From positions 1,952,001 through 2,016,000 of the forward strand of contig CBDFGR010000002.1 of assembly GCA_965247115.1 (NCBI GenBank): 64,000 bases of DNA, in the 5' to 3' direction. A model generated the notes under the pieces. That model was not told where the DNA came from. It saw nothing but the letters and a program-made list of their open reading frames with translations, and did not search any database. Positions 34,695-64,000 of the stretch are shown here, one piece after another (position 1 is the stretch's first letter; each line of letters opens with the position of its first letter). A program made the position numbers and the translations under genes. This stretch comes from Myxococcota bacterium. GTDB taxonomy: Bacteria; Myxococcota_A; UBA9160; SZUA-336.

Positions 34695-34782
34695 ATGGGC
34701 CTCTGAGCGGCCCCCCGGTGTCGGGTCTCTCCACGATCCTCCCCGAGTCAGGAGCTCATCCAGCGTAGTGTACCGCGATTGC

Positions 34783-34819: not shown

Positions 34820-34862
34820 CAGGGCGGATTGTTTGTCTCTTGCTATCGGCCGGCGCGTCCGT

Positions 34863-44069: not shown

Positions 44070-44117
44070 TTCCAGCGGGTACTTGTGGGCAGCTTCACGA
44101 CTGCCGAGCGTGCGGGG

Positions 44118-45308: not shown

Positions 45309-45358
45309 GGCTTAGTGTACTGTAGAAGAAGATACGGCTCGCAAGGAGGAGGATTCGC

Positions 45359-45844: not shown

Positions 45845-45862
45845 GCCGCTCTCGGGTCGTTG

Positions 45863-46948
45863 TCAGTACACGGCGACTGCGACCGCAAACATCAGGATCG
45901 CCAGGCCGAGGACGTAGCGCCAGATCTCCTGCTGGTCATCGTCCGCAACCAGCTCGAACGAGATGCTTCGGTGGGAGCTGACGACGTCGTTCAGAAAGCT
46001 GGTGGCGCTCAGCTCTGCGTTGTCGATGATGAAGGTTCGGCCGCCACTGCGCTCTCCGAGGAATTTCAAGGCGTCGGTATCGAGCCGGGTCCTGATCGTC
46101 TCGAGCTCCTCCTCGAGCGTGTCGTCGTAGTCGAGCCCCTTCTTGTAGTCCAGGAGAACGTCTGACAGGTGTACACCCGTTCGTGCGCCGATTCCGATTG
46201 GATAGACCTTCAAGCCTCTCCGTTGAAGCTCGGACAGCGCCTGATTCAGCCGCTGCGTCTGTTCCGCGTCCGCAGCATAATCCCCGTCTGAGAACAGAAG
46301 CACCAACCGGTCGGTCCGTCTCGTGGGCTTCCAGTCCCGGCTTCCGGCCACGAACCGGTCCTGACTGTCCAGGGACTGATAAACATGCTCGAAGACCGCC
46401 GCCACGTCGGTATCCCAGGGGAAAGCGTCGCCCGTGAGAGTGGTTGGGGGCCGGATCCTCCCGACCTCTCTGAGGAACCTCTCGCTGTTGGACGACAGGT
46501 GGACCTTTCTCAACGCGGTACCACCAAACACGAACAGCCCCACCCGATCACCTTCCCTGAGGATGTCTTCGGCGTACAGGTTGAGGATCTCCCGCACGGC
46601 CAGATCGAGGCGCGAAGGCTTGAGATCCTTGACCCACATGGAGGCCGAGATGTCCAACACCACGGGGACGTCGACGCTCCCCCGTTCAAAACTCGACGCC
46701 CCATAGCTGAAGTACGGCCTTGCAGCTGCGAGAATCGTCATGGTCAGCACTACCAGTGCGAAGAGCCACAGCTTGATTCTGCCGATCAGTGGGTAGGAGG
46801 ACCCGTAGGTCTTCGCGGGCCTCGCGCGCCGCTTGATGGAGTACGCCAGCACGGTGAGAACCAGACCGACCCCGGCTATGGGGAGGAGTGCCAGGTACTC
46901 CGGATTGGCGAAGGTGATGTTGAGCACCGCGGCCCATAGGTCAGACAC
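45863..46948 (-). CDS. Membrane-anchored VWA protein (MxaL/BatB-like)
   Basis: N-terminal double TM (FANPEYL), MIDAS DISASM, PSRLDLA, LFSDGD and C-terminal TM. Confidence 0.82.
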   Translation of the reverse strand: MSDLWAAVLNITFANPEYLALLPIAGVGLVLTVLAYSIKRRARPAKTYGSSYPLIGRIKLWLFALVVLTMTILAAARPYFSYGASSFERGSVDVPVVLDISASMWVKDLKPSRLDLAVREILNLYAEDILREGDRVGLFVFGGTALRKVHLSSNSERFLREVGRIRPPTTLTGDAFPWDTDVAAVFEHVYQSLDSQDRFVAGSRDWKPTRRTDRLVLLFSDGDYAADAEQTQRLNQALSELQRRGLKVYPIGIGARTGVHLSDVLLDYKKGLDYDDTLEEELETIRTRLDTDALKFLGERSGGRTFIIDNAELSATSFLNDVVSSHRSISFELVADDDQQEIWRYVLGLAILMFAVAVAVY

Positions 46949-46951
46949 GGT

Positions 46952-47629
46952 CTACCCTCTTCGCCGCCTGACTGGCACACCCTCGCGCTGCATTTCTTGC
47001 AGCTCGGGGGGCTCGATTTCCACGTAGGTTTCCAGGGCTCGTTTAATGGCCGCCGGATCACTTGTCAGGTCGTAGTTCCACGTGTAGTCGAACCGTTCGC
47101 CGGGATCACTTCTGAGTGCGCGCTCGAAGTCCGGATTCACCTTCTCCAGGACCTCGTTGATGATGTCTGCTCTGGCCCGGATCGCCGCCGCGCTGTCGCC
47201 CTCGATCGCTCGGTAGCGGAGCTGGGCGAGCCTGAACTTCGCGACGCCGAGGAGATACGACGCGCGATGGTCATCGACCTTGTCCTGAAGATCAGACACG
47301 ATCGTCTCGTAGTCGCCCGTGAAGTAGGAGAAGGCCGCCTGGTGGAGAAACGAGTCGCTGAACAGGTACGAATCCGCAAGCTCTTGCAGGCCCAGCCTGC
47401 GACTGCGCTGATAGAACGCCGTGATCTCGTCCAGCTCGGCTTGCGCGGCACTCTGGTCGCGATTCCTGACGTGGTAGCTCAACCCCTCTAGATGGGCATA
47501 GAAGTTGCCGAGGCTCGACGCTGGCACAGCAACAACGATCAGGAACCCGATCGCCAACACCAGGCCCACAGCCCAGCGAACGGGGCTCTGTTGCCTGAGG
47601 AAGTTATCGCGAGACGGGGTATTCATCAT
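46952..47629 (-). CDS. Membrane-anchored helical/TPR-like protein (MxaK/BatC-like)
   Basis: One N-terminal TM; FERALRSDP...YTWNYDL resembles the MxaK/BatC TPR end; lies between two VWA genes. Confidence 0.6.
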   Translation of the reverse strand: MMNTPSRDNFLRQQSPVRWAVGLVLAIGFLIVVAVPASSLGNFYAHLEGLSYHVRNRDQSAAQAELDEITAFYQRSRRLGLQELADSYLFSDSFLHQAAFSYFTGDYETIVSDLQDKVDDHRASYLLGVAKFRLAQLRYRAIEGDSAAAIRARADIINEVLEKVNPDFERALRSDPGERFDYTWNYDLTSDPAAIKRALETYVEIEPPELQEMQREGVPVRRRRG

Positions 47630-47643
47630 GTCGAGTCCTCGGA

Positions 47644-48774
47644 TTAGGGATCGGTTCCCCAGAACAGCTCGCTGGTCAAGCCGAGCGGGATCACGATCAG
47701 CAGGATCATGCTGCCGACCAGCAGAAACCGCATGAAGATGGGCACCTTCAGCGCGCGATACTTGACCTCGACTCGAACCGCCTCGCGCTCGTCGATAGCC
47801 CGGTAGGCGCTCGCCAGGCTGTGCGGATCGTTGACGTCGAAGTAGTCGCCCCCGTGCTCCCGGACTCGCTCAACCAGCCTTGGTGTATGGCTGTTCGTGG
47901 CGCCGGCAATGCGGAGATTGCTCGTGTTGATGAAGATGATGTAGGGCACGATGTTCCGCTTCTTGAGCTCCTGGAACTGCGCCTCTGGATACCGATCGAT
48001 AGCGGCATCGGTGATGATCAGCACGGCCCGGTTCTGGTTCTCACCGTCCGTTAGCTCTGTCGCATCGTTGTCGAAGTGCCTGAGGATGGCCTCGAGCGGC
48101 CGTATGATATTGGTGTCGCCTTCGGCCGCGATGATCTTGACCTTTTCACGCGGCACCATCATGGCTTTGTCTATGCGCTGGGTCGTGACATACGGTGCGT
48201 CGTACACCTGAAAGTAGTAGAGCTCATCGTCTATCACGAAGTCGTCGACCATGTACGGGTAGTTCGAGAAGAGCCACAGAGACACCCGGTCGTTCTTCCC
48301 CGCCCGCATCTCGAGGAATTCGAGATGCGCGTTCCTGGCAACTTCCGCCTTGGACTTGCCGGTGCCAGGAAACTCCCAGGACATCGAGCCAGACGTGTCG
48401 ACGAGATCGACTCTGATTCTCGACTCGACGTATCCAGACACCTCCTCCGTACTGGTCAAGAAGGGATCCGCGATCGCCACCAGTAGACAGACCAACACCA
48501 CTGCCAGACCCAGCTTCGGTATGGTATTGAGCGCTTTTACCCCTAGTCCGCGCCGGTGCTCGTACGAAACGAAGTGACCGGAGTGGTGGCGGGAGTGCTT
48601 TCGCCGGCGGAGCGCCGTCCAGGCGATCTTGAACAGAAGCAGGCCGACGATCGCTCCGCCGAGCCAGATGGCGAACGCCTCGTCGGCGTACCGCACTTGA
48701 CCGAATTCCGTGTCCAGGAATTCCACCAGTCCCGTCTCGACGAAACGAACAAGCTCTTGCCACGCTACGCTCAT
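47644..48774 (-). CDS. Membrane-anchored VWA protein (MxaC/BatA-like)
   Basis: MIDAS DTSGSM, DRVSLWLF, GDTNI, IITD, AIDERE; N- and C-terminal TMs. Confidence 0.82.
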   Translation of the reverse strand: MSVAWQELVRFVETGLVEFLDTEFGQVRYADEAFAIWLGGAIVGLLLFKIAWTALRRRKHSRHHSGHFVSYEHRRGLGVKALNTIPKLGLAVVLVCLLVAIADPFLTSTEEVSGYVESRIRVDLVDTSGSMSWEFPGTGKSKAEVARNAHLEFLEMRAGKNDRVSLWLFSNYPYMVDDFVIDDELYYFQVYDAPYVTTQRIDKAMMVPREKVKIIAAEGDTNIIRPLEAILRHFDNDATELTDGENQNRAVLIITDAAIDRYPEAQFQELKKRNIVPYIIFINTSNLRIAGATNSHTPRLVERVREHGGDYFDVNDPHSLASAYRAIDEREAVRVEVKYRALKVPIFMRFLLVGSMILLIVIPLGLTSELFWGTDP

Positions 48775-48787
48775 ACGTGATGGCGCT

Positions 48788-49903
48788 CTAGCCGTCGCCC
48801 CCTAGCTGAGCCCCCCTCCGGCGATCAACCCAATCGGCGAGGCTCGTCGACACACGCACAAGTGGGCGAAGCTGCCTGAGCGACCGCTGGAGCCGCCTGG
48901 CCTCCATTTCCGCATCCTCAACCGGAGCCGGCTTCCCTTGCTCCAACCCGCCCTGATACACGACCATCTTCGAGGCCAGCGTCATCAGGGCGTCCTTTCG
49001 CGTTCCGCTCTTGACGCTGCGTTCGATGTGCGCCTTGATGTCCTTGGGAGTATCTCCAGGATTCAGCTCTGGAAGCTCGGCCCGCAGCAGGTCCTTCAAC
49101 GAAATGACCAGACTGCGCTCCAGCGCGAGCCATGCCTGTCCATTCCCTGGCGAAGACTGGTGGTCCATGGCACCGAGTACCTTCAGCTGCCGGGCGAGCT
49201 GCCGCCTCGTCTGGCCGGCCGCGGGCTCCAGATACACCTCGAGCGCCTCGAGGTCATCCTCCCCCTTGAGTGGATCCTGACGGGCTAGCCGGGGCCTCCT
49301 CATCAGTCTGACGAACAGGACGAGCCACACGACCAGCGGCAGCGGTGCGATCGTCCACGCGATCGCTTTCATGATCGTCGCTCTTGTCCTGAAGCTGCCG
49401 AGCTCGACGGTATCTCGAACATCGATCACCGGATCTTCGGTCACAGTAGTCACATAGCTGACATACAGCTCATCGCTGTCGATCAGTTGCGCGTCAGCGT
49501 CCTCAATGGTCTCGCCGAGATCCCGGACCAACCAGAAGAAGCGCACCCTCGGCAGCACGTATGTTCGCTTGGTGGGATTCAGCATTCGAAAGGTGTAGGC
49601 GAAATCCCAGATGTGCTCGTCACCAACCCTTCGCTTCACGACCGCCACGGAGCTGGCATCGAAGGGGTCGACGGAGAGATTCTCCGGCACCATTCGATCC
49701 TCGAGAACGACCAGCTCACGACCCTCGCCAATCAGGTCGGGAAACTTCACCCGGTACACAACGACGAACGGCTCGCTCGACTTCACGACCGTGGGAACCG
49801 GCTTCAAGGTCTCCACCGTCAAGGGCGCTGGTTCCTGGCCGAGAACGTTTCGGGCGAGAAGCAGGAGGATGGCTGCGCCGATTGCGTTGCGCTTCATGGT
49901 CAA
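48788..49903 (-). CDS. Signal peptide + beta-rich domain + TM + helical tail protein (MxaA-like by position and topology)
   Basis: Topology from the translation; lies between the DUF58 and VWA genes. Confidence 0.55.
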   Translation of the reverse strand: MTMKRNAIGAAILLLLARNVLGQEPAPLTVETLKPVPTVVKSSEPFVVVYRVKFPDLIGEGRELVVLEDRMVPENLSVDPFDASSVAVVKRRVGDEHIWDFAYTFRMLNPTKRTYVLPRVRFFWLVRDLGETIEDADAQLIDSDELYVSYVTTVTEDPVIDVRDTVELGSFRTRATIMKAIAWTIAPLPLVVWLVLFVRLMRRPRLARQDPLKGEDDLEALEVYLEPAAGQTRRQLARQLKVLGAMDHQSSPGNGQAWLALERSLVISLKDLLRAELPELNPGDTPKDIKAHIERSVKSGTRKDALMTLASKMVVYQGGLEQGKPAPVEDAEMEARRLQRSLRQLRPLVRVSTSLADWVDRRRGAQLGGDG

Positions 49904-49943
49904 TGTTCCCGGTCTCTGCGGGCGACCTCGGCCGTGCCCGGGC

Positions 49944-50861
49944 TCAGCGACCGGATCTCGCCATCAAGAAGGTGGAGAGCTCCTCGAACCAGTTCGTGGG
50001 CGTCAGCACAACCGAATCGATCCCCGCTCGCCGCTTCAGGGTCGCCATCAGCGCTTCCCGGGACTCCTCGATCTGTCGGCGCACGGCCCCCGCGCGGCGT
50101 GCCGACATCACGACCTCCTCCCCTGTCTCCATGTTGGTGGCCCTCACGTAGCCCAGCTTGCTCCGCACGACATGTTCCTCGGGGTCGTCCAGGATCAGCA
50201 CGATCATATCGTGCTTCGACCCCAGACTGCCAAGCAGGCCGGAGTCGAAGGCGTCTGGCTCGTTCAGGAGATCCACCACATCGGAAATGAACACTATTGA
50301 GTGTCTCATTTTCAGGCGACTGGCCAGAAAGTTCAAAGCCACGGAGAGGTCGGTTGTCCGCTTCGTCGGATACTCTCTCTCGAACTGCACTTTCTCGAAG
50401 ATCCGCTTTGCCATGAAAAAAATGTGCGAGCTGCCCAGCTTGGGCTTCAGGTACAGCTCAACTCGGTCTGAAAACCCGAGCAGTCCGACCGGGTCTTGCA
50501 CGTGTGCCCGCGTCAAGCCGATGGCGCCGATCAGATCGAGCAGCAACAGGGCCTTGTTGGCGTCCTGGAGAATTCTGAACAACGTCGAAGAGGAGAGGTC
50601 GGCGACCAGAATGGTCCGCATCTCCTTCGGTTCCATCCTCTCGATCTTGTAGATCTTGTCCGGGTACGTGCGAAGACTCAGGCTCCAGGAGATGTCCTTG
50701 AGCGGTTGCCCGTCTCTCCACTGATCGACCCCGACAATGTCGTAGCCAGAACCCTTGAAGGCGCTTCGATGCTCACCGAAGGAAAAGCTAGTGGACTTCT
50801 TCTTGGCTTTGGCACCCCGATTGAGCTCGCGGAATCTGGAAAAGACCTCCTCTACTTCCAC
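49944..50861 (-). CDS. DUF58 family protein (MxaS-like)
   Basis: GEHRSAFKGSG, DISW, VADLSSS, DPVGL, VFISD and KHD motifs. Confidence 0.87.
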   Translation of the reverse strand: MEVEEVFSRFRELNRGAKAKKKSTSFSFGEHRSAFKGSGYDIVGVDQWRDGQPLKDISWSLSLRTYPDKIYKIERMEPKEMRTILVADLSSSTLFRILQDANKALLLLDLIGAIGLTRAHVQDPVGLLGFSDRVELYLKPKLGSSHIFFMAKRIFEKVQFEREYPTKRTTDLSVALNFLASRLKMRHSIVFISDVVDLLNEPDAFDSGLLGSLGSKHDMIVLILDDPEEHVVRSKLGYVRATNMETGEEVVMSARRAGAVRRQIEESREALMATLKRRAGIDSVVLTPTNWFEELSTFLMARSGR

Positions 50862-51949
50862 GGAGGGATCTCCATGTCCTTGATGATCTGAGCGAGCACC
50901 TCCTCGCGAGTGACAGAGAACTCCATCCCCTCCTTGAGCACCAGTCGATGCGCCAGCACGTATGGTGCGACGGCCTTGATGTGGTCGGGCGTGACGAGCA
51001 AGTCGCCGTTGAAGAACGCGAAGGTTCGAGCGACCGCTTCAAGATGAAAGTGGACGCGCGGCGAGATGCCGACCCGGATGTACTCCTTGACCGTCCGCGC
51101 CGCTCGACCCTGAGTTCTGTGGGGTCTGGTACTTCGGATCAACCTCACTCTGTACTGATCGGCGTACTCGGATGTGGGGACGTTGTCGAAGATGAACTGC
51201 GCGATGTCCAGCACCTCGTGCAGGTTGGTCAGCTTCTCCACCTTCTTGCCCACGACATTGCGAGCCACGATCTTCGCTTCGTCCGCTTCGTCTTCCGGAT
51301 CGCCCATGTAGATGGCGAGGGTCGTTCGATCCAGCTGCGCCACGGGATTCGGGAATGTTCCCTCCTCCTCGCCGAAGATGTTCTCGGTGCAGATGACCAT
51401 GAAGAAGCGTGGACCCTCGATATCGGCGAAGTCCCCGGACAGGGGGAAGAGCGGAACCATCTTCGTTTCGCCGACACCCAGGTTCCCGTAGTCCGAAGTG
51501 AGCGAGGCAGAGCTCTCCTCCATGCCTTCGAGCACCGCCGCTTTGGTCTTGCCCGTCAACCGATTGTCCTCGTCGATCAGGACGATGTGCGCCATGAGCT
51601 TGCCCGGCTTGAAGTGGATCTGGCGGCTGCCATCCAGCTCCTCGACGATCGTCTCGTAGCCGAGAATGTCCTCGGGCATGTACGTCGGGAGCCCCTGGAT
51701 CCGCTCGAACTTGGCATCGATCGCCATCGCACAGGCCGTTACCAGATCGGTCTTTCCGGTTCCGGTGGGACCCTTGAACAACACGTGGGGTTGGCGCAGC
51801 GCCTTGGTCTGCCGGAGCTTGTCGGTGTAGGGGAGCAGCGTGAAGAACGCCCACGAGAGAGTTCTCGCCGCCTCATCCAGACCGAAGAGCCACTTGGTGG
51901 ACTCGTTCTGGAACTTCTGAACGACCTCAAAGGCCCGGTCGCGATCCAT
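50852..51949 (-). CDS. moxR: MoxR-family AAA+ ATPase (MxaR-like, divergent)
   Basis: HVLFKGPTGTGKT, RIQ..P..MPEDILG, LIDEDNR, EGTFP.P.AQLDR, GISPR and VLAHRL motifs; start 51949 (AAGGA) or 51973. Confidence 0.9.
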   Translation of the reverse strand: MDRDRAFEVVQKFQNESTKWLFGLDEAARTLSWAFFTLLPYTDKLRQTKALRQPHVLFKGPTGTGKTDLVTACAMAIDAKFERIQGLPTYMPEDILGYETIVEELDGSRQIHFKPGKLMAHIVLIDEDNRLTGKTKAAVLEGMEESSASLTSDYGNLGVGETKMVPLFPLSGDFADIEGPRFFMVICTENIFGEEEGTFPNPVAQLDRTTLAIYMGDPEDEADEAKIVARNVVGKKVEKLTNLHEVLDIAQFIFDNVPTSEYADQYRVRLIRSTRPHRTQGRAARTVKEYIRVGISPRVHFHLEAVARTFAFFNGDLLVTPDHIKAVAPYVLAHRLVLKEGMEFSVTREEVLAQIIKDMEIPPWK

Positions 51950-52160
51950 GGCGTCCTTATTTTTCCCCGGCATCAGACAGTCCGTCCAGCTGTAGCGGTT
52001 ACACCGGACTACCGCCAACTCGCGGTAACTTGACCCTCAGGCGGTCTTGCTGCCATTCTCGGGGCGAAAAGCGGAGCAAATGCTCCAGAGGCGTGCCCCT
52101 TCGAGCACGGATCTGATTCTCCCCGGACCGGGCGGGCTTGGACCGGGAGGAGGCGCGACG

Positions 52161-54041: not shown

Positions 54042-54056
54042 CGAGGAGGCACGCTG

Positions 54057-55949: not shown

Positions 55950-55961
55950 CGAGGAGGCGCG

Positions 55962-57827
55962 ATGATGATGAGGTGGCTTGGTGTGATGTCCGTCGCCGTC
56001 ACGGTGTTGCTACCGACGGCGGCCTCGGCGCAGGCGACGGATGCTCGGTGGCTCTTCCTGTTCGAGGAACAATGCGCCACCTGCCATGGAACGACCAGTA
56101 TCGTTCCCAACGCGGTCAGTCGCGAGGCGATTCGCTCGTTCTCCCCGGAGCGGGTGCTCGAGGCGCTGACGACCGGTGCGATGGTGCCCAACGCGAGCGG
56201 GCTCTCGGAGGAGGAGAAGCGCGGCTTGGCCGAGTACCTGACGGGTCGCCCGTTCGGAAACGCGGCGGACCGCTCGGCCGAGGCGATGCCGAACCGTTGC
56301 GCCGACGATATGCCGATGGGCGATCCGTCGGTCGGCCCGCAGTGGAACGGCATGAGCCCCGATCCCACGACGAGCGCCCGCTTTCAGCCGGCCGCTGCGG
56401 CAGGGCTGACGGCCGAGCAGCTGCCGCGGCTGCGGCGCAAGTGGGCGTTCGGCTTTCCGGACGGCAGCTCGCTCCGGGGCCAGCCCACGGTCGCCGGGGG
56501 TCGCGTGTTCGTGGGCAGCGACAACGGGATGGTGTACGCGCTCGACGCGAAGAGCGGCTGCGTGCACTGGTCCTTCGAGGTCGGCGAAGCTGTGATTACG
56601 GGGATCAGCGTGGGGACCGTGCCCGGGTCCGGAGACCGCTACGCCGCGTACTTCGGGGATTTCCGGGCGAACGTCCACGCGGTGGACGCCGAGACGGGCG
56701 AAGGGCTCTGGACGGTGTCTGTGGACGAGCACGAGTTTGCGAAGGTCAGCGGCTCGCTGGTGCTCGATCCCCAGGGGGGACGCCTGTACGTGCCGGTAGG
56801 CTCGTGGGAGGAAGTCTCGGGCATCGTCAACCTCCTGTACGAGTGCTGCACTTCCCAGGGCAGCGTGGTGGCCCTGGAGGCCGCAACCGGGCGGCAAATC
56901 TGGAAGAGCTACACGATTCCCGAACGTCCCCGGCCGGTCAGGAAGAACTCCGCCGGCACGCAGCTGTTCGGCCCATCGGGGGCCGGGGTCTGGGCGGCGC
57001 CCACGCTCGACTACCGGCGCCGGGTCCTCTACGTCGGCACGGCGAACGGCTACATCAATGTGCCGGACTCGGGGTCCAGTGACGCCGTCATCGCCTTCGA
57101 CCTCGATACGGGCAAGCGACGCTGGTCGACCCAGCTCTTGGCCGGCGATCTGAACTGCGGGGGCGGTGGATCGACCGACGCCGACAAGAGGATCAACTGC
57201 CCCGGCTTCATCCCGACCACGAACGACGATGTGTCCGGGTCGCCCGTCCTGCACACGCTGCCGGATGGGCGCCAGATTCTGATCGCGGGGCAGGAGAGCG
57301 GCAGGATCACAGCGTTGGATCCGGACGACAACGGCGCCGTGCTGTGGGTCGCGCAAGCAGGGGACGTGCTGAGCCCAGGAGGCGGCGGCATGGGCGCCGC
57401 CGCGGATGGAGAGCTCTACTACAGGGCCCTCGTGCTCCCCGACAGGACCGGTGGGATGGCCGCGCTCCGATCCGCGACGGGCGAGCGGGTCTGGTACGCC
57501 ACCCACCCGAAGCCCACGAGCTGCTCCGACCCGGAGGCGGACTGGTGCAGCTCGGGACAGTATGGAGCGGCGACGGTGATCCCCGGCGCCGTCTTCGCAG
57601 GGGCCCGGGACGGCACCCTGCGCGCGTACTCGACGGGGAACGGCGAGGTCCTGTGGGAGTACGACACGATGCAGGAGTACGAGACGGTGAACGGCGTGCG
57701 TGCGAAGGGGGGCTCGATCGGTGGCCACGGGCCGGCGATCGTCGGCGGCATGCTGTTCATGGGCTCCGGGTACAACATCATCACGAGCACCCCGGGCAAC
57801 GTGCTGCTCGCGTTTGGCGTGGAATAG
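55962..57827 (+). CDS. PVA-dehydrogenase-type quinohemoprotein, copy 3
   Basis: CATCH, same architecture. Confidence 0.9.
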   Translation: MMMRWLGVMSVAVTVLLPTAASAQATDARWLFLFEEQCATCHGTTSIVPNAVSREAIRSFSPERVLEALTTGAMVPNASGLSEEEKRGLAEYLTGRPFGNAADRSAEAMPNRCADDMPMGDPSVGPQWNGMSPDPTTSARFQPAAAAGLTAEQLPRLRRKWAFGFPDGSSLRGQPTVAGGRVFVGSDNGMVYALDAKSGCVHWSFEVGEAVITGISVGTVPGSGDRYAAYFGDFRANVHAVDAETGEGLWTVSVDEHEFAKVSGSLVLDPQGGRLYVPVGSWEEVSGIVNLLYECCTSQGSVVALEAATGRQIWKSYTIPERPRPVRKNSAGTQLFGPSGAGVWAAPTLDYRRRVLYVGTANGYINVPDSGSSDAVIAFDLDTGKRRWSTQLLAGDLNCGGGGSTDADKRINCPGFIPTTNDDVSGSPVLHTLPDGRQILIAGQESGRITALDPDDNGAVLWVAQAGDVLSPGGGGMGAAADGELYYRALVLPDRTGGMAALRSATGERVWYATHPKPTSCSDPEADWCSSGQYGAATVIPGAVFAGARDGTLRAYSTGNGEVLWEYDTMQEYETVNGVRAKGGSIGGHGPAIVGGMLFMGSGYNIITSTPGNVLLAFGVE

Positions 57828-57839
57828 CGAGGAGGCAAG

Positions 57840-59735
57840 ATGATGCGATGGTTCCTGCTGGCGTTTGTCGCCGTCACAATGACTCTGCCGCTGGCGGCCC
57901 GGGGGCAGGTGACATCGGGTGAGTATCTCTTCCTGTACGAGTCCCAGTGCGCGGTCTGTCATGGAACTGACAGTGGCGTCCCCAACGCGGTCAGTCGCGA
58001 AGCCCTCCGCGCGCTCTCCCCGGAGCGGGTACTCGAGGCGCTGACGAATGGCCCGATGGTGGCCAATGCGAGCGGGCTATCGGACGTGCAGAAGCGCGGG
58101 CTGGCCCAGTTCCTGACCGGCCGCCCGTTCGGAAGCGCGGCGGACCGCTCGGCAGAGGCAATGCCGAATCGCTGCGCCAGTGGCATGCCCATGCGAGATC
58201 CGTCAGCGGGTCCGGGGTGGAACGGCATGAGCCCGGATCCGACGACAAGCGCTCGTTTTCAGCCGACCGCCGCGGCGGGGCTGACGGTCGAGCAGCTGCC
58301 GCAGCTGCAGCGGAAGTGGGTGTTCGGCTTTCCGGATGGCAGCGGGGTCCGGGGTCAGCCGACGGTAGCTGGGGGTCGGGTGTTCGTGGGTAGCGACAAC
58401 GGGATGGTGTACGCGCTCGACGCACAGACCGGCTGTGTGCACTGGTCCTTTGAGGCCGCGACGGCCGTTGTGACGTCCATCAGCGTCGGGACCGTGCCCG
58501 GGTCGCAAGACCGTTTTGCCGCGTACTTCGGGGATTTCCGGGCGAATGTCTACGCCGTCGATGCCGAAACGGGCGAGCAGCTGTGGACGCTGTCCGTCGA
58601 CGACCATGAGATGGCGAAGATCACGGGCTCGCCCGCGCTCGATCCCCAGGGGGGACGCCTGTATGTGTCGGTGGGCTCATGGGAGGAGGGCGCTGGCCAG
58701 AACCTCTCGTACGAGTGCTGCACGTCCCAGGGCAGCGTGGTGGCCCTGGAGGCCGGGACAGGGCGGCAGATCTGGAAGACCTACACGATTCCCGAACGTC
58801 CCAGGCCGATCAGGAAAAACTCCGCCGGCACGCAGCTGTACGGACCAGCGGGCGCCGGGGTCTGGGTGGCGCCCACGCTCGACCTCGAGCGGGGCGCCGT
58901 CTACGTCGGTACGAGCAATGGCTACATCAACGTACCGGACTCGGGGTCCAGTGACGCCATCATTGCCTTCGACCTCGACACCGGCGAGAGGCGCTGGTCG
59001 ACTCAGCTGCTGGCCAATGATCAGAACTGCGGGGGAGGTGGCCTCACCGATGCCGACCACAGGATCAACTGCCCCGGCTTCGTGGGGGTTCTGGAGGCAA
59101 CGCGTGCACTCGGTGGAAATCCCAACGACGACGTCTCCGGCTCGCCAGTCCTGCACACGCTGCCGGATGGTCGCCAGATTCTGATCGCGGGGCAGGAGAG
59201 CGGCAGGATCACGGCACTCGATCCCGACAAGAGCGGCGCCGTGCTGTGGGTCGCGCAGGCCGGGGATGTCTTGGTCTTGGGCCCACAGGGCGGCGGCATG
59301 GGCGCCGGCGCGGATGGAGAGCTCTACTACAGGGCCGTCGGGTTCGCCGATCAGACCGGTGCGATGACCGCGCTCCGGCCCGCGACGGGCGAGCGGGTCT
59401 GGTACACCCCGCACGCGAAGCCGACGAGCTGCTCCGACCCGGAGGCGGACTGGTGCAGCTCGGGACTGTTCGGGGCGGCGACGGTCATCCCCGGCGCCGT
59501 GTTCGCGGGGGCCAGGGACGGCACGCTGCGCGCGTACTCGACGGGGGACGGCGAGGTCCTGTGGGAATACAGCACGATGCAGGAGTACGAGACGGTGAAC
59601 GGCGTGCGGGCCAAGGGCGGCTCGATCGGCGGCCATGGGCCGGCGATCGTCGGGGGCATGCTGTTCATGGGCTCCGGATACAGCGTGACCGGGGGCGTTC
59701 CGGGCAACGTGCTGATCGCGTTCGGCGTCGAGTAG
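57840..59735 (+). CDS. PVA-dehydrogenase-type quinohemoprotein, copy 4
   Basis: CAVCH, same architecture. Confidence 0.9.
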   Translation: MMRWFLLAFVAVTMTLPLAARGQVTSGEYLFLYESQCAVCHGTDSGVPNAVSREALRALSPERVLEALTNGPMVANASGLSDVQKRGLAQFLTGRPFGSAADRSAEAMPNRCASGMPMRDPSAGPGWNGMSPDPTTSARFQPTAAAGLTVEQLPQLQRKWVFGFPDGSGVRGQPTVAGGRVFVGSDNGMVYALDAQTGCVHWSFEAATAVVTSISVGTVPGSQDRFAAYFGDFRANVYAVDAETGEQLWTLSVDDHEMAKITGSPALDPQGGRLYVSVGSWEEGAGQNLSYECCTSQGSVVALEAGTGRQIWKTYTIPERPRPIRKNSAGTQLYGPAGAGVWVAPTLDLERGAVYVGTSNGYINVPDSGSSDAIIAFDLDTGERRWSTQLLANDQNCGGGGLTDADHRINCPGFVGVLEATRALGGNPNDDVSGSPVLHTLPDGRQILIAGQESGRITALDPDKSGAVLWVAQAGDVLVLGPQGGGMGAGADGELYYRAVGFADQTGAMTALRPATGERVWYTPHAKPTSCSDPEADWCSSGLFGAATVIPGAVFAGARDGTLRAYSTGDGEVLWEYSTMQEYETVNGVRAKGGSIGGHGPAIVGGMLFMGSGYSVTGGVPGNVLIAFGVE

Positions 59736-59750
59736 CGAGGAGATACGCTG

Positions 59751-61613
59751 ATGAGGTGGCTCCTAGTGGTGTCTGTCGCCGTAACGGTGTGGCTGCCGAC
59801 GGCGGCCTCGGCGCAGGTGACGGCTGCACAGGGCTACGTGACTTATGAGGACCGGTGCGCGATGTGCCACGGAACGAAGAGTCTCGTTCCCAACGCGGTC
59901 AGTCGCGAAGCCCTCCGTTCGTTTCCCCCGGAACGGGTGCTCAAGGCTCTGACGACTGGCACGATGGCGGCCAATGCGAGCGGGCTTTCGGAGCAGGAGA
60001 AGCGCGGGCTGGCCGAGTACCTGACCGGTCGCCCGTTCGGAAACGCGGCGGACCGCTCGGCCAAGGCGATGCCGAACCGCTGCGCCGATGACATGCCGAT
60101 GCGAGATCCGTCGTCCGGCCCGCACTGGAACGGCATGAGCCCCGATCCCACTACGAGCGCTCGCTTTCAGCCGGCGGCCGCCGCCGGGCTGACGGCCGAG
60201 CAGCTGCCACGGCTGCGGCGGAAGTGGGCGTTCGGCTTTCCGGACGGCAGCTCGGTCCGGGGCCAGCCGACGGTGGCTGGAGGACGAGTGTTTGTGGGCA
60301 GCGACAACGGGATGGTGTACGCGCTCGACGCGAAGACCGGCTGTGTGCACTGGTCCTTCGAGTCCGGGGAAGCAGTGGTAACGGCCATCAGCGTTGGAGC
60401 GCTGCCCGGGTCGCAGGACCGCTACGCGGCGTACTTTGGAGACTTCCGCGCGAATGTGCACGCCGTGGACGCCGAGACGGGAGAGCCCCTGTGGACGGTG
60501 CGCGCGGACGACCATGAGATGGCGAAGATCACGGGTTCGCCCGTGCTCGACACGCAGGGGGGACGCCTGTTTGTGCCGGTAGGCTCGTGGGAGGAGGTCT
60601 CTGGGATCTTCACCCTCTCGTACGAATGCTGCACGTCCCAGGGCAGCGTGGTGGCCCTGGATGCCTTGACCGGGCGGCAGATCTGGAAGACCTACACGAT
60701 CCCCGAGCGTCCCAGGCCGGTCGGGAAGAACTCCGCAGGCACGCAGCTGTACGGTCCCTCGGGTGCCGGAATCTGGGCGGCACCGACGCTCGACCTCAGG
60801 CGCAGGACCCTCTACGTCGGGACGAGCAACGGCTACATCGAGGTGCCCGACTCGGGGTCCAGTGACGCCGTCATCGCCTTCGACCTCGACACGGGCAAGA
60901 GGCGCTGGTCGACCCAGCTCTTGGCCGGCGATCAGAACTGCGGGGGAGGTGGAATTGCCGCTGCCGACACGAGGATCAACTGCCCCGGTAAGATCCAGAA
61001 TCAAAATGACGATGTGTCCGGGTCGCCCGTCCTGTACACGCTGCCGAACGGGCGTCAGATTCTGATCGCGGGGCAGGAGAGCGGCAGGATCACAGCACTG
61101 GATCCGGACGACAACGGCGCCGTGCTGTGGGTCGCGCAGGCAGGCGACGTGATTGGCCCGAACATGGCGGGCGGCCTTGGTGCTGCCGCGGATGGAGAGC
61201 TCTACTACAGGGCGCTCGGGTTCCCCGACAAGACCGGTGCGATGGCCGCGCTCCGACCCGCAACGGGCGAGCGGGTCTGGTACACCACCCACGCGAAGCC
61301 GACGAGCTGCTCCGACCCCGAGGCGGACTGGTGCACATCGGGCCAGTTCGGGGCAGTCACGGTGATCCCCGGCGCCGTGTTCGCGGGGGCGAGGGACGGC
61401 ACCCTGCGAGCGTACTCGACGGGGGACGGCGAGGTCCTCTGGGAGTACAGCACGATGCAGGAGTACGAGACGGTGAACGGCGTGCAGGCCAAGGGGGGCT
61501 CGATCGGTGGCCACGGGCCGGCGATCGTCGGCGGCATGCTGTTCATCGGCTCGGGTTACAACATCATCACGAGCACCCCGGGCAACGTGCTGCTCGCGTT
61601 CGGGGTCGAGTAA
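59751..61613 (+). CDS. PVA-dehydrogenase-type quinohemoprotein, copy 5
   Basis: CAMCH, same architecture. Confidence 0.9.
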   Translation: MRWLLVVSVAVTVWLPTAASAQVTAAQGYVTYEDRCAMCHGTKSLVPNAVSREALRSFPPERVLKALTTGTMAANASGLSEQEKRGLAEYLTGRPFGNAADRSAKAMPNRCADDMPMRDPSSGPHWNGMSPDPTTSARFQPAAAAGLTAEQLPRLRRKWAFGFPDGSSVRGQPTVAGGRVFVGSDNGMVYALDAKTGCVHWSFESGEAVVTAISVGALPGSQDRYAAYFGDFRANVHAVDAETGEPLWTVRADDHEMAKITGSPVLDTQGGRLFVPVGSWEEVSGIFTLSYECCTSQGSVVALDALTGRQIWKTYTIPERPRPVGKNSAGTQLYGPSGAGIWAAPTLDLRRRTLYVGTSNGYIEVPDSGSSDAVIAFDLDTGKRRWSTQLLAGDQNCGGGGIAAADTRINCPGKIQNQNDDVSGSPVLYTLPNGRQILIAGQESGRITALDPDDNGAVLWVAQAGDVIGPNMAGGLGAAADGELYYRALGFPDKTGAMAALRPATGERVWYTTHAKPTSCSDPEADWCTSGQFGAVTVIPGAVFAGARDGTLRAYSTGDGEVLWEYSTMQEYETVNGVQAKGGSIGGHGPAIVGGMLFIGSGYNIITSTPGNVLLAFGVE

Positions 61614-61625
61614 CGAGGAGACACG

Positions 61626-63518
61626 ATGATGAGATGGTTCTTGGTGGCGTTCGTCGCCCTTACAGTGTGGCTGCCGAGGGCGACGTGGGCGCAGGTGACA
61701 GATTCTAGCTACGCCTTCATGTTCGAGGAGCAGTGCGCGCTCTGCCATGGAACGACGGCTACGATCCCCAACGCGGTCAGTCGCGAAGCCCTCGCAATCT
61801 TCACCCCGGAGCGGGTGCTCGAGGCGCTCACGACCGGTGCGATGGCGCCCAATGCGAGCGCGCTCTCGGACGAGGAGAAGCGCGGGCTTGCCTTGTACCT
61901 GAGCGGTCGCCCGTTCGGAAGCGCGGCGGACCGCTCGGCTGCAGGGATGCCCAACCGCTGCGCCAGCGGGATGGCGATGGGTGATCCCTCATCCGGCCCG
62001 CAGTGGAGCGGCATGAGCCCAGACCCCACCACCAGCGCTCGCTTTCAGCCGGCCGCTGCGGCGGGGCTGACGGTCGAGCAGCTGCCTCGGCTGCGTCGGA
62101 AGTGGGCGTTCGGCTTTCCGGATGGCAGCGCGGTCCGAGGCCAGCCGACCGTGGCTGGGGGTCGGGTGTTCGTGGGTAGCGACAACGGGATGGTGTACGC
62201 GCTCGACGCAGAGACGGGTTGTGTGCACTGGTCCTTTGAGGCCGGGAAGGCCGTGGTAACGGCCATCAGCGTGGGGACCGTGCCGGGGTCGGAGGACCGC
62301 TACGCGGCGTACTTCGGGGATTTCCGAACGAATGTCTACGCCGTGGACGCCGAGACGGGCGAGCAGTTGTGGACGGTGCGCGTCGACGACCATCAGTTCA
62401 CGAAGATCACGGGCTCGCCCGCGCTCGATACGCAGGGGGGACGCCTGCTCGTGTCGGTGGGCTCGTGGGAGGAGGTCGCTGGCCAGAACCTCACATACGA
62501 GTGCTGTACGTCCCAGGGCAGCGTGGTGGCCCTGGACGCAGCGACCGGGCAGCAGCTCTGGAAGACCTACACGATCCCCGAACGGCCCAGACCGATCAGG
62601 AAGAACTCCGCAGGCACGCAGCTATACGGCCCGTCGGGTGCCGGGGTCTGGGTGGCGCCCACGCTCGACCACAAGCGCGGGGCCGTCTACGTCGGCACGG
62701 CGAATGGCTATATCAATGTGCCGGACGCGGGGTCCAGTGACGCCGTCATCGCGTTCGACCTCGATACCGGCAAGCGGCTCTGGTCGACGCAGCTCTTGGC
62801 CAACGACTTGAACTGCGGGGGAGGTGGCACCACCGCTGCCGACCATAGGATCAACTGCCCCGGCTTCGTGGGGCCTTATGACGCGCTGCGCGCCCTAGGT
62901 GGGAATCCCAACGACGACGTGTCCGGGTCGCCGGTCCTGCACACGCTGCCGGATGGGCGTCAGATTCTGATCGCGGGGCAAGAGAGCGGCAGGATCACGG
63001 CACTGGATCCGGACGACAACGGCGCCGTGCTGTGGGTCGCTCAGGCCGGCGACGTGATGGGCCCAGGACGCGGTGGCGGCATGGGCGCCGCCGCGGATGG
63101 AGAGCTCTACTACAGACCCCTCGGGTTACCCGACCAGGGCGGAGGGATGGCCGCGCTCCGGCCCGAGACGGGCGAGCGGGTCTGGTACGCCACGCACCCG
63201 AAGCCGACGGGCTGCTCCGACCCCGAGGCGGAATGGTGCAGCTCGGAACAGCTCGGCGCGGCGACGGCCATCCCCGGCGCCGTATTCGCAGGGGCCCGGG
63301 ATGGCACCCTGCGGGCGTACTCGACGGGGGACGGCGAGGTCCTGTGGGAGTACAACACCATGCAGGAGTACGAGACGGTGAACGGCGTGCGAGCCAAGGG
63401 AGGCTCGATCGGTGGTCATGGGCCGGCGATCGTTGGGGGCATGCTGTTCATGGGCTCCGGCTACAATCTCGTCACGGCCGCCCCAGGGAACGTGCTGATC
63501 GCGTTTGGCGTCGAGTAA
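61626..63518 (+). CDS. PVA-dehydrogenase-type quinohemoprotein, copy 6
   Basis: CALCH, same architecture. Confidence 0.9.
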   Translation: MMRWFLVAFVALTVWLPRATWAQVTDSSYAFMFEEQCALCHGTTATIPNAVSREALAIFTPERVLEALTTGAMAPNASALSDEEKRGLALYLSGRPFGSAADRSAAGMPNRCASGMAMGDPSSGPQWSGMSPDPTTSARFQPAAAAGLTVEQLPRLRRKWAFGFPDGSAVRGQPTVAGGRVFVGSDNGMVYALDAETGCVHWSFEAGKAVVTAISVGTVPGSEDRYAAYFGDFRTNVYAVDAETGEQLWTVRVDDHQFTKITGSPALDTQGGRLLVSVGSWEEVAGQNLTYECCTSQGSVVALDAATGQQLWKTYTIPERPRPIRKNSAGTQLYGPSGAGVWVAPTLDHKRGAVYVGTANGYINVPDAGSSDAVIAFDLDTGKRLWSTQLLANDLNCGGGGTTAADHRINCPGFVGPYDALRALGGNPNDDVSGSPVLHTLPDGRQILIAGQESGRITALDPDDNGAVLWVAQAGDVMGPGRGGGMGAAADGELYYRPLGLPDQGGGMAALRPETGERVWYATHPKPTGCSDPEAEWCSSEQLGAATAIPGAVFAGARDGTLRAYSTGDGEVLWEYNTMQEYETVNGVRAKGGSIGGHGPAIVGGMLFMGSGYNLVTAAPGNVLIAFGVE

Positions 63519-63563
63519 AGGAGGCCACGAATGGGGAACAGAGTCCATCGAGGAGGCACGCTG

Positions 63564-64000
63564 ATGAAGTGGTTCGTCGTCGCGTTCGTTGCCGTCACGA
63601 TGTTGGTGCCGAGGGCCACGTGGGCGCAGGTGACAGATAGCTCGGCCGCCTTCCTGTTCGAGGAGCAGTGCGCGCTCTGTCATGGAACGACCAGCACCGT
63701 CCCCAACGCGGTCAGTCGCGAGGCCCTCCGAGCGTTCTCGCCGGAGCGGGTGCTCGAATCGCTCACGACCGGAGCGATGGCGCCCAATGCGAGCGCCCTC
63801 TCTGATCAGGAGAAGCGCGGGCTGGCCGAGTACCTGACCGGTCGCCCGTTCGGAAGCGCGGCGGACCGCTCGGCTGCGGCAATGCCGAACCGCTGCGCCA
63901 GCGGCATGCCGATGGGTGATCCGTCCGCCGGCCCGCAGTGGGGCGGCATGAGCCCCGATCCCACGACCAGCGCTCGCTTTCAGTCGGCCGCTGCGGCGGG
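63564..64000 (+). CDS. PVA-dehydrogenase-type quinohemoprotein, copy 7 (runs off window; alternative in-frame ATG at 63531)
   Basis: Not in the track. Manual translation: MKWFVVAFVAVTMLVPRATWAQVTDSSAAFLFEEQCALCHGTTSTVPNAVSREAL... Confidence 0.88.
   Translation, partial: MKWFVVAFVAVTMLVPRATWAQVTDSSAAFLFEEQCALCHGTTSTVPNAVSREALRAFSPERVLESLTTGAMAPNASALSDQEKRGLAEYLTGRPFGSAADRSAAAMPNRCASGMPMGDPSAGPQWGGMSPDPTTSARFQSAAAA

Follow-up and report, generated by a model that had tools for sequence, protein, structure and literature searches.

Why does an operon with the gene order of a methanol dehydrogenase maturation cluster stand back to back with an array of quinohemoprotein genes, and which enzymes would its products serve? 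The locus lies in a 64,000-nucleotide stretch of a Myxococcota bacterium genome (the window). The initial annotation had read six minus-strand genes as a cofactor- or metal-loading machine for the PVA-dehydrogenase-type enzymes encoded opposite. We analyzed the operon, its relatives and their genomic neighborhoods.

An intact six-gene operon faces a quinoprotein array

All six predicted open reading frames were present, spanning 45863-51973. The locus comprises the following features:

50852..51973, minus strand: MoxR-type AAA+ ATPase, 373 aa, predicted cytoplasmic (AAA_3, 88.5 bits; AAA_lid_2, 50.4 bits)
49944..50861, minus strand: DUF58 protein, 305 aa, predicted cytoplasmic VWA-like adaptor (PF01882, 82 bits)
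48788..49903, minus strand: third protein, bitopic membrane protein, 371 aa (signal peptide, TM helix, AlphaFold2 model)
47644..48774, minus strand: fourth protein, membrane VWA protein, 376 aa (VWA_2, 29 bits)
46952..47629, minus strand: gene 5, small membrane-anchored helical protein, 225 aa, weakly TPR-like (TM helix 20-38)
45863..46948, minus strand: sixth protein, second membrane VWA protein, 361 aa (VWA_2, 40.4 bits; VWA, 34 bits)
51974..52160, no strand: divergent intergenic region between operon and array, 187 nt
52161..64000, plus strand: tandem cytochrome c and PQQ-propeller genes (PVADH-like), six complete and one cut by the window end (CxxCH, Cytochrome_CBB3, PQQ/PQQ_2)

Intergenic gaps within the operon range from -10 to 40 nt, the DUF58 and MoxR genes overlapping by 10 nt. 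The six-gene order was conserved in 72 of 79 related loci, the remaining 7 ending at contig edges, and the arrangement is therefore not a product of chance. For MoxR, the best start is the ATG at 51973; the AAA_3 match covers only profile positions 1-95 of 131, and the Walker A (G-x-T-G-x-G-K-T) and Walker B (D-E) motifs were invariant across 21 sequences. No hydrophobic segment was found in either MoxR or the DUF58 protein. The third protein combines a signal peptide, an outside beta-sandwich (~29-169), a TM helix (172-201) and a cytoplasmic helical bundle (229-367) in an AlphaFold2 model with a mean pLDDT of 82.6. It had no Pfam or NCBIfam match and no convincing Foldseek match in the PDB (TM-scores ~0.16); its nearest named language-model clusters, BatD (11% of members) and DUF4381 (24%), serve as leads only.

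The fourth protein carries its VWA domain between an N-terminal TM pair (30-48 and 88-106, joined by a strongly basic loop) and a C-terminal TM segment (344-362), and the sixth protein shows the same layout (20-38, 58-76 and 342-360). Their MIDAS motifs, DTSGS and DISAS, follow a D-x-S-x-S pattern that was conserved in 71/71 and 70/70 family members, respectively. Judged by the positive-inside rule and nothing else, the MIDAS domains of both proteins are predicted to face outward, that of the fourth protein into the periplasm. The gene 5 protein, which had no Pfam match, was modeled as all helical (pLDDT 83.8); its likeness to TPR proteins, suggested by the initial annotation, is weak, with Foldseek matches only at E >= 0.4. 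Taken together, these features describe a MoxR AAA+/DUF58/VWA membrane operon whose six genes are intact, as are its ATPase and MIDAS motifs.

The divergent region, earlier put at about 200 bp, separates the operon from the first array gene (ATG 52161) by 187 nt. A consensus scan found no sigma-70-like site in it, and similarity to a genome of the same genus (G358) starts only 13 nt upstream of the first array gene. Where at least seven cytochrome c-PQQ genes had been claimed, the window contains six complete genes and a truncated seventh, and the full array nine. Each array protein has an N-terminal CxxCH motif and Cytochrome_CBB3 and PQQ/PQQ_2 matches. The array continues beyond the window, with eight successive copies followed by an aminotransferase, an MFS transporter, the ninth copy and four full-length PF01011 dehydrogenases, and ends at window-equivalent position 80647, giving 13 quinoprotein genes (9 cytochrome c-PQQ and 4 PQQ dehydrogenases). 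Identity among the paralogues is 80-88%, neighboring copies among the first seven are separated by 12-15 nt, and homologues at 50-70% identity bear the JGI name 'polyvinyl alcohol dehydrogenase (cytochrome)'. The source genome (G000) encodes 17 array paralogues, 8 of them elsewhere and unlinked to the operon. In four RNA libraries from a single study, short contigs with at least 97% similarity map to genes of both operon and array, a hint of their expression.

The operon shares its gene order with MxaRSACKL and its architecture with Bat-like operons

The proposed correspondence to the order mxaRSACKL was verified on the actual mxa cluster of Methylobacterium bullatum: both encode MoxR, DUF58, an unassigned membrane protein, VWA, a small unassigned protein and VWA at similar lengths, and a link to PQQ enzymes is common to the two. 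Ca2+ incorporation into MxaFI is described as requiring every one of MxaR, S, A, C, K and L (PMC12276312). In agreement with the initial annotation, mxaF, mxaI, mxaJ and mxaG were not found nearby, none of seven above-cut-off TIGR03075 matches lies within the window, and MxaI (PF02315) was not found in the source genome by a search that detects it in a Methylobacterium record.

The likeness did not extend to the sequences, as profile and sequence comparison placed the operon proteins no closer to Mxa than to ordinary MoxR/DUF58/VWA proteins. The operon MoxR shares 26.5% identity with MxaR (65 bits) and 32.5% with an ordinary MoxR (127 bits). In the MoxR tree, the operon-type clade was monophyletic (support 0.997) and lay nearer to ordinary MoxRs, with MxaR outside it. 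The subfamily profiles missed MxaS, MxaA, MxaK and MxaL; hhalign gave a probability of 0.4% for the third protein against MxaA and a weak match of gene 5 to MxaK (probability 27%, E 7e-4, 60 columns). We rejected the operon as an Mxa orthologue, its MoxR forming a separate clade and four of the five other proteins lacking a detectable match to their Mxa counterparts. It also differs from Mxa in its partners (a PQQ importer, pqqBCDE, and ADH-type and PVADH-like quinoproteins) and in its hosts, which are Acidobacteriota, candidate-phyla-radiation (CPR) bacteria and the phylum of the source genome.

With Bat-like operons (the Leptospira bat genes and Borrelia BB0170-BB0176), the operon has in common a MoxR, a DUF58 protein, membrane MIDAS VWA proteins and a member resembling TPR proteins. 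For BB0173, a periplasmic VWFA domain is described (PMC5700661), and a Leptospira mutant without any bat genes is reported to have no oxidative-stress phenotype (PMC3557215). In contrast to Bat-like operons, ours has a MoxR of a separate clade and six genes with no BatD- or BatE-sized members, and the sixth protein scored 31-32 bits against NCBIfam BatA/BatB models with cut-offs of 350-380. The source genome also has an ordinary Bat-like operon (C2:991,000-1,003,230), which the subfamily profiles scored above the Mxa proteins (MoxR 143 bits, DUF58 98, VWA 49). Such scores, together with the matching architecture and TM/MIDAS layout, speak for a rival reading, in which the operon would be a Bat-like envelope module of the generic kind, serving housekeeping or stress functions with no tie to PQQ. 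Its neighbors would then be explained by synteny inherited within one order and a few coincidences, and in the source genome by a chance insertion beside an expanding array.

Related operons adjoin genes for PQQ import, synthesis and use

A survey of homologous operons, which the initial annotation had proposed, revealed a recurrent PQQ linkage: at author-chosen score thresholds, 69 of 79 orthologous loci had a PQQ gene within 10 kb, whereas a PQQ importer, pqqBCDE or propeller was found at 0 of 44 ordinary-MoxR loci (356 kb of flank). A PqqU-like importer was present at 58 loci, pqqBCDE at 13 and a PQQ propeller at 5, these counts overlapping. By class, 53 loci had the PqqU-like receptor alone, 10 pqqBCDE alone and 1 a propeller alone, while 2 combined the receptor with a propeller, 2 had all three and 1 had the receptor with pqqBCDE. 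Only 3 (L045, L049, L059) of the 10 loci without any PQQ gene had a full 10-kb upstream flank. Propellers by themselves were not enriched (7/79 loci in 1,042 kb of flank); genome-wide PF01011 matches numbered 41 in G401 and 80 in G402. A scan restricted to propellers had pointed to no linkage, and widening it to importer, biosynthesis and propeller genes reversed that outcome.

At 56 of 58 loci the PqqU-like gene points in the same direction as the operon, and the median distance from its end to the MoxR gene downstream is 252 nt. All 58 belong to a single order (Vicinamibacterales and kin) and do not represent independent events. In a PDB sequence search, this receptor, a gene of other genomes that lies outside the window, matched solved PqqU/YncD over its full length (243 bits, E 4e-71; next-best receptor 55 bits). 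PqqU was also its best NCBIfam family, yet at 291-326 bits against an equivalog cut-off of 1200, and it differs from PqqU by an extra N-terminal CarboxypepD_reg domain. A control receptor located in the window was not PqqU-like. PqqU producers have been reported in the class Vicinamibacteria, and the PqqU-encoding Acidobacteria are described as lacking PQQ synthesis genes (PMC12124388, which does not mention MoxR). The importer was single-copy in its three owner genomes (G402, G000 and G358). In G402 it adjoins the operon and PqqC is absent, while in G401 pqqBCDE adjoins the operon and no PqqU-like gene is found; the four Pqq proteins at L002 (PqqB, PqqC, PqqD and PqqE) exceed their curated cut-offs.

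These neighborhoods bear directly on a Bat-like module. One clade supplies most PqqU adjacencies, as that reading would have it, but four kinds of PQQ gene (importer, biosynthesis, ADH-type enzymes and the PVADH-like array) adjoin the operon in varied arrangements and lineages, importer and pqqBCDE substitute for each other beside it, and even a single-copy importer adjoins it in G402. We therefore consider a role unconnected to PQQ unlikely, though still a serious contender.

The prominence of the importer raises a second alternative, in which the operon works on the supply side rather than in enzyme maturation. Together with PqqU or a PQQ exporter, it would capture, pass on or sense PQQ that enters or leaves the cell, or the metal (Ca/lanthanide), at the inner membrane. 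Consistent with this, L002 has a MATE transporter between pqqB and the operon, and operon-adjacent ADH-type proteins have an Asp aligned with the Ala of MxaF D-Y-A, a column that would correspond to the lanthanide residue; lanthanide enzymes are described as needing an extra Asp where Ca2+ enzymes carry Ala, Ser or Thr (10.1101/2020.02.25.964783). However, the flanks of CPR carriers show no outer-membrane receptor gene and the partner there is the enzyme itself, the single PqqU-like gene of the source genome lies ~168 kb from an operon whose neighbor is an enzyme array, and MoxR/VWA systems of known role, such as Mxa, act on enzymes. A supply-side role thus appears distinctly improbable.

The operon is shared with distant lineages and was probably acquired horizontally

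The MoxR of the source genome is 80-87% identical to Vicinamibacterales homologues, 45-55% to CPR homologues and ~33% to ordinary MoxRs. Because none of 400 sampled genomes from the same phylum was found to have the operon, and identity to Vicinamibacterales is 82-85% for MoxR but 56-61% for RpoB, horizontal transfer is the most likely origin of the operon in this genome. The congeneric genome G358, which is 95% complete, lacks the operon despite 10 PF01011 matches, PVADH-like genes (83-84% identity) and a PqqU-like gene; G051, G033 and G039, with 14, 4 and 4 PF01011 matches, lack it too. Thus, not all owners of quinoproteins need the operon, a point that also suits a Bat-like module.

In sampled CPR genomes, the operon and PF01011 matches (E <= 1e-20) were each found in 0 of 400. 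Three CPR genomes carry the operon: in G403, the sole PQQ-family gene is located ~1.4 kb upstream of it; in G411, a gene of this family is on a different contig; and G410 is without a PF01011 match genome-wide. On low-GC metagenome contigs, a PQQ-family gene lies directly downstream of the operon in L111 and L163 but not in L112. L079 also has no nearby propeller. Operons without PQQ propellers (G410, L079, L112) are as expected of a Bat-like module, while the co-occurrence of two features each absent from the sample argues against one. This shows that operon and PQQ-family propellers co-occur independently in CPR bacteria, mostly adjacent in the few carriers.

The recurrent partners point to quinoproteins in general

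Of the function first proposed, the PQQ link was borne out and the PVA-dehydrogenase-type client was not: the recurrent partners are the PqqU-like importer, pqqBCDE and ADH-type quinoproteins, and pairing with a PVADH array was seen only in the source genome, where the operon is apparently a horizontal acquisition. A chaperone dedicated to PVA-dehydrogenase-type quinohemoproteins would account for the divergent pair there, and a metagenome MoxR (98% identical) and a metagenome array homologue (80% identical) are on contigs of matching length, 85 kb, a hint that a nearly identical strain may have this pairing too. Yet a PVADH-like neighbor occurred at 0/79 genome loci and 0/36 operon-type metagenome loci, propellers adjoining related operons are ADH-type and 21-26% identical to the array protein, and close PVADH-like genes exist without the operon in G358, as do eight unlinked paralogues in the source genome itself. 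So narrow a specificity is very unlikely.

Because its relatives nearly always adjoin genes for PQQ import, synthesis or enzymes, the operon likely aids the receipt of cofactor by PQQ enzymes. By analogy with MxaRSACKL and methanol dehydrogenase, we give roughly even chances to a function in supplying exported PQQ-dependent dehydrogenases, among them those of the adjacent array, with their cofactor by loading metal and/or PQQ. In such a loading machine, a cytoplasmic MoxR hexamer and the DUF58 protein would work via the helical domain on the cytoplasmic side of the bitopic third protein, and their action would cross the membrane to the two anchored VWA proteins, with their predicted periplasmic MIDAS sites, and the TPR-like scaffold. 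This outer part may keep apo-quinoproteins open for insertion of Ca2+ or lanthanide, and/or PQQ. The nearest candidate clients in the source genome would be the 13 adjoining quinoprotein genes, and for the family as a whole the clients are probably quinoproteins in general.

A MoxR/VWA operon divergent from a quinohemoprotein array

Six tightly spaced minus-strand genes in the order MoxR, DUF58, gene 3, VWA, gene 5, VWA, divergent across a gap of about 200 bp from at least seven cytochrome c-PQQ genes, had been described in the initial annotation. The gene order was confirmed, with 187 nt between the MoxR start codon (ATG 51973) and that of the first array gene (ATG 52161), and the array proved larger than claimed.

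45863-51973, minus strand: six-gene operon (ORFs; intergenic gaps -10 to 40 nt)
50852-51973, minus strand: MoxR, best start ATG 51973 (Pfam AAA_3 88.5 bits, AAA_lid_2 50.4 bits)
second gene, minus strand: DUF58 protein (Pfam 82 bits)
fourth gene, minus strand: first VWA protein (VWA_2 29 bits)
sixth gene, minus strand: second VWA protein (VWA_2 40.4 bits)
52161-64000, plus strand: six complete and one truncated (window end) cytochrome c/PQQ-propeller genes (N-terminal CxxCH and PQQ-type propeller)
L001:1-8084, following the window end: continuation of the array

Both AAA_3 and AAA_lid_2 scored above cut-off in the window MoxR, which places it among the MoxR AAA+ ATPases (PF07726), with the AAA_3 match spanning only profile positions 1-95 of 131. 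The Walker A and Walker B motifs are kept, and G71, K74, T75, D134, and E135 are invariant in the alignment. An insertion follows AAA_3 profile position 95, and identity of the protein within an order is unusually high, at 80-87%. No hydrophobic segments were found in MoxR or the DUF58 protein. Two TM helices with a strongly basic connecting loop stand at the N terminus of each VWA protein, followed by a VWA domain and a C-terminal TM helix, and the MIDAS motif D-x-S-x-S is retained in 71/71 and 70/70 members of the two families. Genes 3 and 5 had no Pfam match. In the model of the gene 3 product (mean pLDDT 82.6), a signal peptide precedes a beta-sandwich (about residues 29-169), after which come a single TM helix and a C-terminal bundle of helices; Foldseek against the PDB returned nothing useful for this protein (TM-scores about 0.16). 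The gene 5 product is modeled (pLDDT 83.8) as a fully helical domain with a single TM helix, for which the same comparison gave only weak TPR matches. The positive-inside rule predicts a cytoplasmic location for the gene 3 helical bundle and a periplasmic one for the gene 3 beta-sandwich, the gene 5 domain, and both VWA domains. The predicted VWA orientation agrees with that reported for BB0173, a Bat-like VWA protein with a periplasmic VWFA domain (PMC5700661).

Scanning 45300-52400 for promoters and terminators was uninformative, with no promoter-like site and one terminator-like site versus 4.4 expected in shuffles. Four RNA libraries of a single study yielded short contigs (at least 97% alike) that fall on both operon and array genes; these contigs leave 44000-47004 uncovered, a gap from which we draw no inference. 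As RNA libraries may contain DNA, these contigs are only a hint that operon and array are expressed.

The operon is distinct from both Mxa and ordinary Bat operons

The operon shares its architecture with two known systems. Its gene order (MoxR, DUF58, MxaA-like, VWA, MxaK-like, VWA) is identical to that of MxaRSACKL, as the initial annotation had stated, and matches the mxa cluster L087 of Methylobacterium bullatum (mxaF, mxaI, MoxR, DUF58, unassigned gene, VWA, unassigned gene, VWA, MxaD). This cluster, located through MxaI (151 bits), was the single Mxa set used for comparison; the Methylosinus plasmid pMSC49c was rejected as a source because it yielded a lone dehydrogenase only. In contrast to MxaRSACKL, the window operon is not clustered with mxaF, mxaJ, mxaG, or mxaI. 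Their absence, also noted initially, held up: MxaI (PF02315) was not found in the Myxococcota source genome, G000, by a search that did find it in the Methylobacterium record W01, and no TIGR03075 match above cut-off lies within the window. Like Bat operons, the window operon combines MoxR, DUF58, and membrane VWA proteins with MIDAS motifs, and G000, in which the window spans C2:1952001-2016000, also carries an ordinary operon of this type.

G000:C2:991000-1003230: ordinary Bat-like operon (MoxR 338 aa, DUF58 317 aa, 334-aa protein, VWA 340 aa, 1110-aa VWA-containing protein, 600-aa protein)

We built subfamily HMMs from 43-71 orthologues per window protein. Against the ordinary operon of G000 at C2:995,903-1,003,230 they scored 143 bits for MoxR, 98 for DUF58, and 49 for VWA, and 137 bits for a second ordinary MoxR; against the Mxa set they gave 83.5 bits for MxaR and 22.5 for MxaC, with no match at E <= 1e-3 to MxaS, MxaA, MxaK, or MxaL. 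In BLASTP the window MoxR matched ordinary MoxR at 32.5% identity (127 bits) and MxaR at 26.5% (65 bits), and MxaR matched ordinary MoxR at 30.5% (138 bits). Profile alignment with hhalign gave a probability of 0.4% for gene 3 versus MxaA and of 27% (E 7e-4, 60 columns) for gene 5 versus MxaK. Furthermore, in a tree of 68 MoxR sequences the 21 operon-type proteins form one clade (support 0.997), with 46 ordinary MoxRs and MxaR outside it. Orthology to Mxa was thus rejected by HMM, BLASTP, hhalign, and tree, with one Mxa set compared. The second VWA protein scored 32.1 bits with NF047508 (cut-off 380) and 30.9 with NF047506 (cut-off 350), BatA/BatB models that are both Leptospira-specific. Of the named language-model clusters nearest to gene 3, one carries BatD in 11% of its members and another DUF4381 in 24%; for either assignment Pfam gave no supporting match (E <= 10). 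Taken together, these sequence comparisons, made with one Mxa set, indicate that the operon is a third lineage of the shared architecture, separate from Mxa orthologues and from ordinary Bat operons.

Operon loci are linked to PQQ import, synthesis, and enzyme genes

Relatives of the operon MoxR were collected from at least 509 stretches (one genome per species), and the best 79 loci were taken. The six genes stand in order at 72/79, and the remaining 7 run off contigs. Flank scans for propellers only (4/79 loci, then 7/79 in 1,042 kb) initially suggested no linkage to PQQ: 7/79 is not above the genome-wide density, since the carriers G401 and G402 have 41 and 80 PF01011 matches. This reading was later dropped because the upstream receptor proved PqqU-like and pqqBCDE adjoined the operon. 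The receptor, a co-directional TonB-dependent protein, is the commonest operon neighbor in relatives. It matched the solved PqqU/YncD structure over its full length with 243 bits (next receptor 55 bits), and its best NCBIfam family is PqqU (NF041535), at 291-326 bits under a cut-off of 1200. PqqU is a TonB-dependent PQQ importer reported in class Vicinamibacteria, and PqqU-encoding Acidobacteria are reported to lack PQQ synthesis genes (PMC12124388). In G401, pqqBCDE lies about 2-5 kb upstream of the operon, and all four proteins scored above curated cut-offs. We then scanned the flanks of the 79 loci for all three kinds of gene, with score thresholds of our own choosing.

PQQ-related genes in the flanks of 79 orthologous operon loci
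PqqU-like only: 53/79
PqqU-like and propeller: 2/79
PqqU-like, pqqBCDE, and propeller: 2/79
PqqU-like and pqqBCDE: 1/79
pqqBCDE only: 10/79
propeller only: 1/79
no PQQ gene: 10/79 (full upstream flank in 3 of them only)

Recurrent linkage of homologous operons to PQQ genes was thus borne out at 69/79 loci, versus 0/44 metagenome loci of ordinary MoxR (356 kb of flank) with a PqqU-like, pqqBCDE, or propeller gene, a control that is imperfect because it mixes many taxa. The PqqU-like gene is co-directional at 56/58 loci, where it ends a median of 252 nt upstream of MoxR. One copy each is present in G402, G000, and the same-genus genome G358, and none in G401, a PQQ maker. One locus (L067:1899-17931) forms a 'PQQ island' in which pqqBCDE, the PqqU-like receptor, the six-gene operon, and an alcohol-dehydrogenase-type PQQ dehydrogenase share one strand. 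These associations, mostly from one order, support a link between the operon clade and genes for PQQ supply and PQQ enzymes.

Two further transport loci were observed. In PQQ-producing G401, pqqB and the MoxR operon are separated by a MATE-family transporter gene (L002:8320-9675), whose product might, as a guess, be a PQQ exporter. The window itself holds two neighboring TonB-dependent receptor ORFs (33315-37415; 489 and 850 aa), the larger of which is not PqqU-like, its best PDB match being the pesticin receptor (49 bits).

The array belongs to an expanded paralogue family in a likely PQQ scavenger

Followed across the window end, the array has eight copies in a row, then genes for an aminotransferase and an MFS transporter, the ninth copy, and four full-length PF01011 dehydrogenases (588-605 bits). 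Identity among the nine copies is 80-88%, with 12-15 nt between neighbors in the first seven. Each protein carries CxxCH at residues 35-73 followed by PQQ/PQQ_2 domains, as expected of a haem c and propeller enzyme. We describe them as predicted polyvinyl alcohol dehydrogenase (PVADH)-type quinohemoproteins with predicted PQQ binding and activity, where the PVADH label comes solely from the JGI name 'polyvinyl alcohol dehydrogenase (cytochrome)' of homologues at 50-70% identity. G000 encodes 17 PVADH-like paralogues at 80-88% identity, 9 in the array and 8 elsewhere, and its close relative G358 has two or three; the set is a recent lineage-specific expansion. Four of the 17 form a second cluster at G000:C3:1196260-1212140.

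PVADH-type enzymes had been proposed as the specific clients of the operon. This was not supported: in no relative's locus examined does the operon adjoin a PVADH-like gene, and G358 carries PVADH-like genes and a PqqU-like gene without the operon. PF01011 matches likewise occur without the operon in G358 (10), G051 (14), G033 (4), and G039 (4), which speaks against a necessary or dedicated role.

With 66 TIGR03075 matches, G000 has PQQ-propeller genes by the dozen. PqqC above cut-off was not found in this genome (34.6 bits versus 240), and its sole PqqU-like gene, about 168 kb from the operon, directly follows a full-length PQQ dehydrogenase (C2:2169394-2174217). On gene content, G000 looks like a PQQ scavenger. 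At 29458-33071 the window also contains a methylamine dehydrogenase (TTQ) cluster, in which a thioredoxin-like protein separates the heavy chain (PF06433, 141 bits) from the light chain (PF02975, 156 bits) and a small ORF without assignment comes last.

The operon was most likely acquired horizontally

MoxR homologues at 75-98% identity are abundant in metagenomes; the next step is 45-55% (named Yanofskybacteria), followed by 36% or less. Three of the best 79 loci come from CPR bacteria (Yanofskybacteria, Saccharibacteria), and the labels of the other 76 are Vicinamibacter-type, Acidobacteria, or uncultured. The operon MoxR was found in 0/400 other sampled genomes of the phylum of G000 (E <= 1e-60), gene 3 in 0/20 relatives, and G358 had no DNA match to the operon. 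RpoB of G000 is 95% identical to that of G358, 79% to that of one genome of the family, 75% to that of one genome of the class, and 56-61% to those of two Vicinamibacterales genomes, whereas its operon MoxR is 82-85% identical to those of the same two genomes. The closest locus, L002 of G401 (57-84% identity over six proteins), is sister to G000 in a concatenated tree of 48 taxa (support 0.997). The absence from the sampled genomes of the phylum, the contrast between MoxR and RpoB, and the tree together make it most likely that the operon reached the G000 lineage by horizontal transfer, in a direction suggested by its distribution. The GC content of the operon (60.5% versus 66.8% in the flanks) adds weak support, because Vicinamibacterales operons also sit below their flanks (median -2.7 points, extreme -5.3).

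CPR-like operons and putative lanthanide-type PQQ propellers

In 400 sampled CPR genomes we found neither the operon (0/400) nor PF01011 at E <= 1e-20 (0/400). Among the three CPR carriers, G403 has a single PQQ-family gene, which lies upstream of the operon at a distance of about 1.4 kb; in G411 such a gene sits on a separate contig, and G410 has none. Further CPR-like operon loci came from the metagenome scan only. On low-GC metagenome contigs with enough flank, a PQQ-family gene lies directly downstream of the operon in L111 and L163; L112 lacks it, though it keeps the remaining synteny of UvrC, trypsin-like protease, operon, and S41 protease. The CPR-like proteins are methanol/ethanol-family PQQ propellers (PF01011).

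L077:6912-8543, L111:8896-10377, and L163:16771-18297: CPR-like methanol/ethanol-family PQQ propellers (PF01011 141-225 bits), on contigs where the operon is bordered by a trypsin-like and an S41 protease

They share 40% identity with the post-operon dehydrogenase of locus L004 and 21-23% with the array protein of G000. D-x-D occupies the metal-ligand position, the vicinal Cys-Cys is absent, and an Asp aligns with the Ala of MxaF D-Y-A. At a site occupied by Ala, Ser, or Thr in Ca2+ enzymes, lanthanide enzymes need an additional Asp (10.1101/2020.02.25.964783), and the aligned column would correspond to this residue.

Discussion

MxaRSACKL, which is of equal architecture, is reported to be required for Ca2+ incorporation into MxaFI (PMC12276312), and for this reason we infer that the operon may be a quinoprotein cofactor-loading machine for metal and/or PQQ. 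Clients and mechanism are both projected from this likeness; in G000 the neighboring array would probably be among the clients. A broader proposal is that the operon clade encodes a general ATP-driven trans-membrane machine for holo-quinoprotein assembly, which would equip exported PQQ dehydrogenases with lanthanide or calcium and perhaps also with scavenged PQQ, would have spread horizontally with PQQ supply genes, and would be present even in CPR bacteria, which in that case would run PQQ/lanthanide alcohol dehydrogenases on scavenged cofactor; we consider this full picture conceivable but rather doubtful. Our literature searches found no paper joining 'PqqU' with 'MoxR', nor one joining 'polyvinyl alcohol dehydrogenase' with 'MoxR'.

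These data touch on two questions: how metal and PQQ are delivered to periplasmic PQQ dehydrogenases besides MxaFI, and what the widespread Bat-like MoxR/DUF58/VWA operons do. They point to unexpected PQQ-family enzymes in CPR bacteria and suggest that assembly help of the Mxa type extends beyond methylotrophs, and the operon may be useful for producing active recombinant quinoproteins. A distinct MoxR/VWA clade beside PQQ importer, synthesis, or enzyme genes in three phyla provides a genetically testable handle on both questions.
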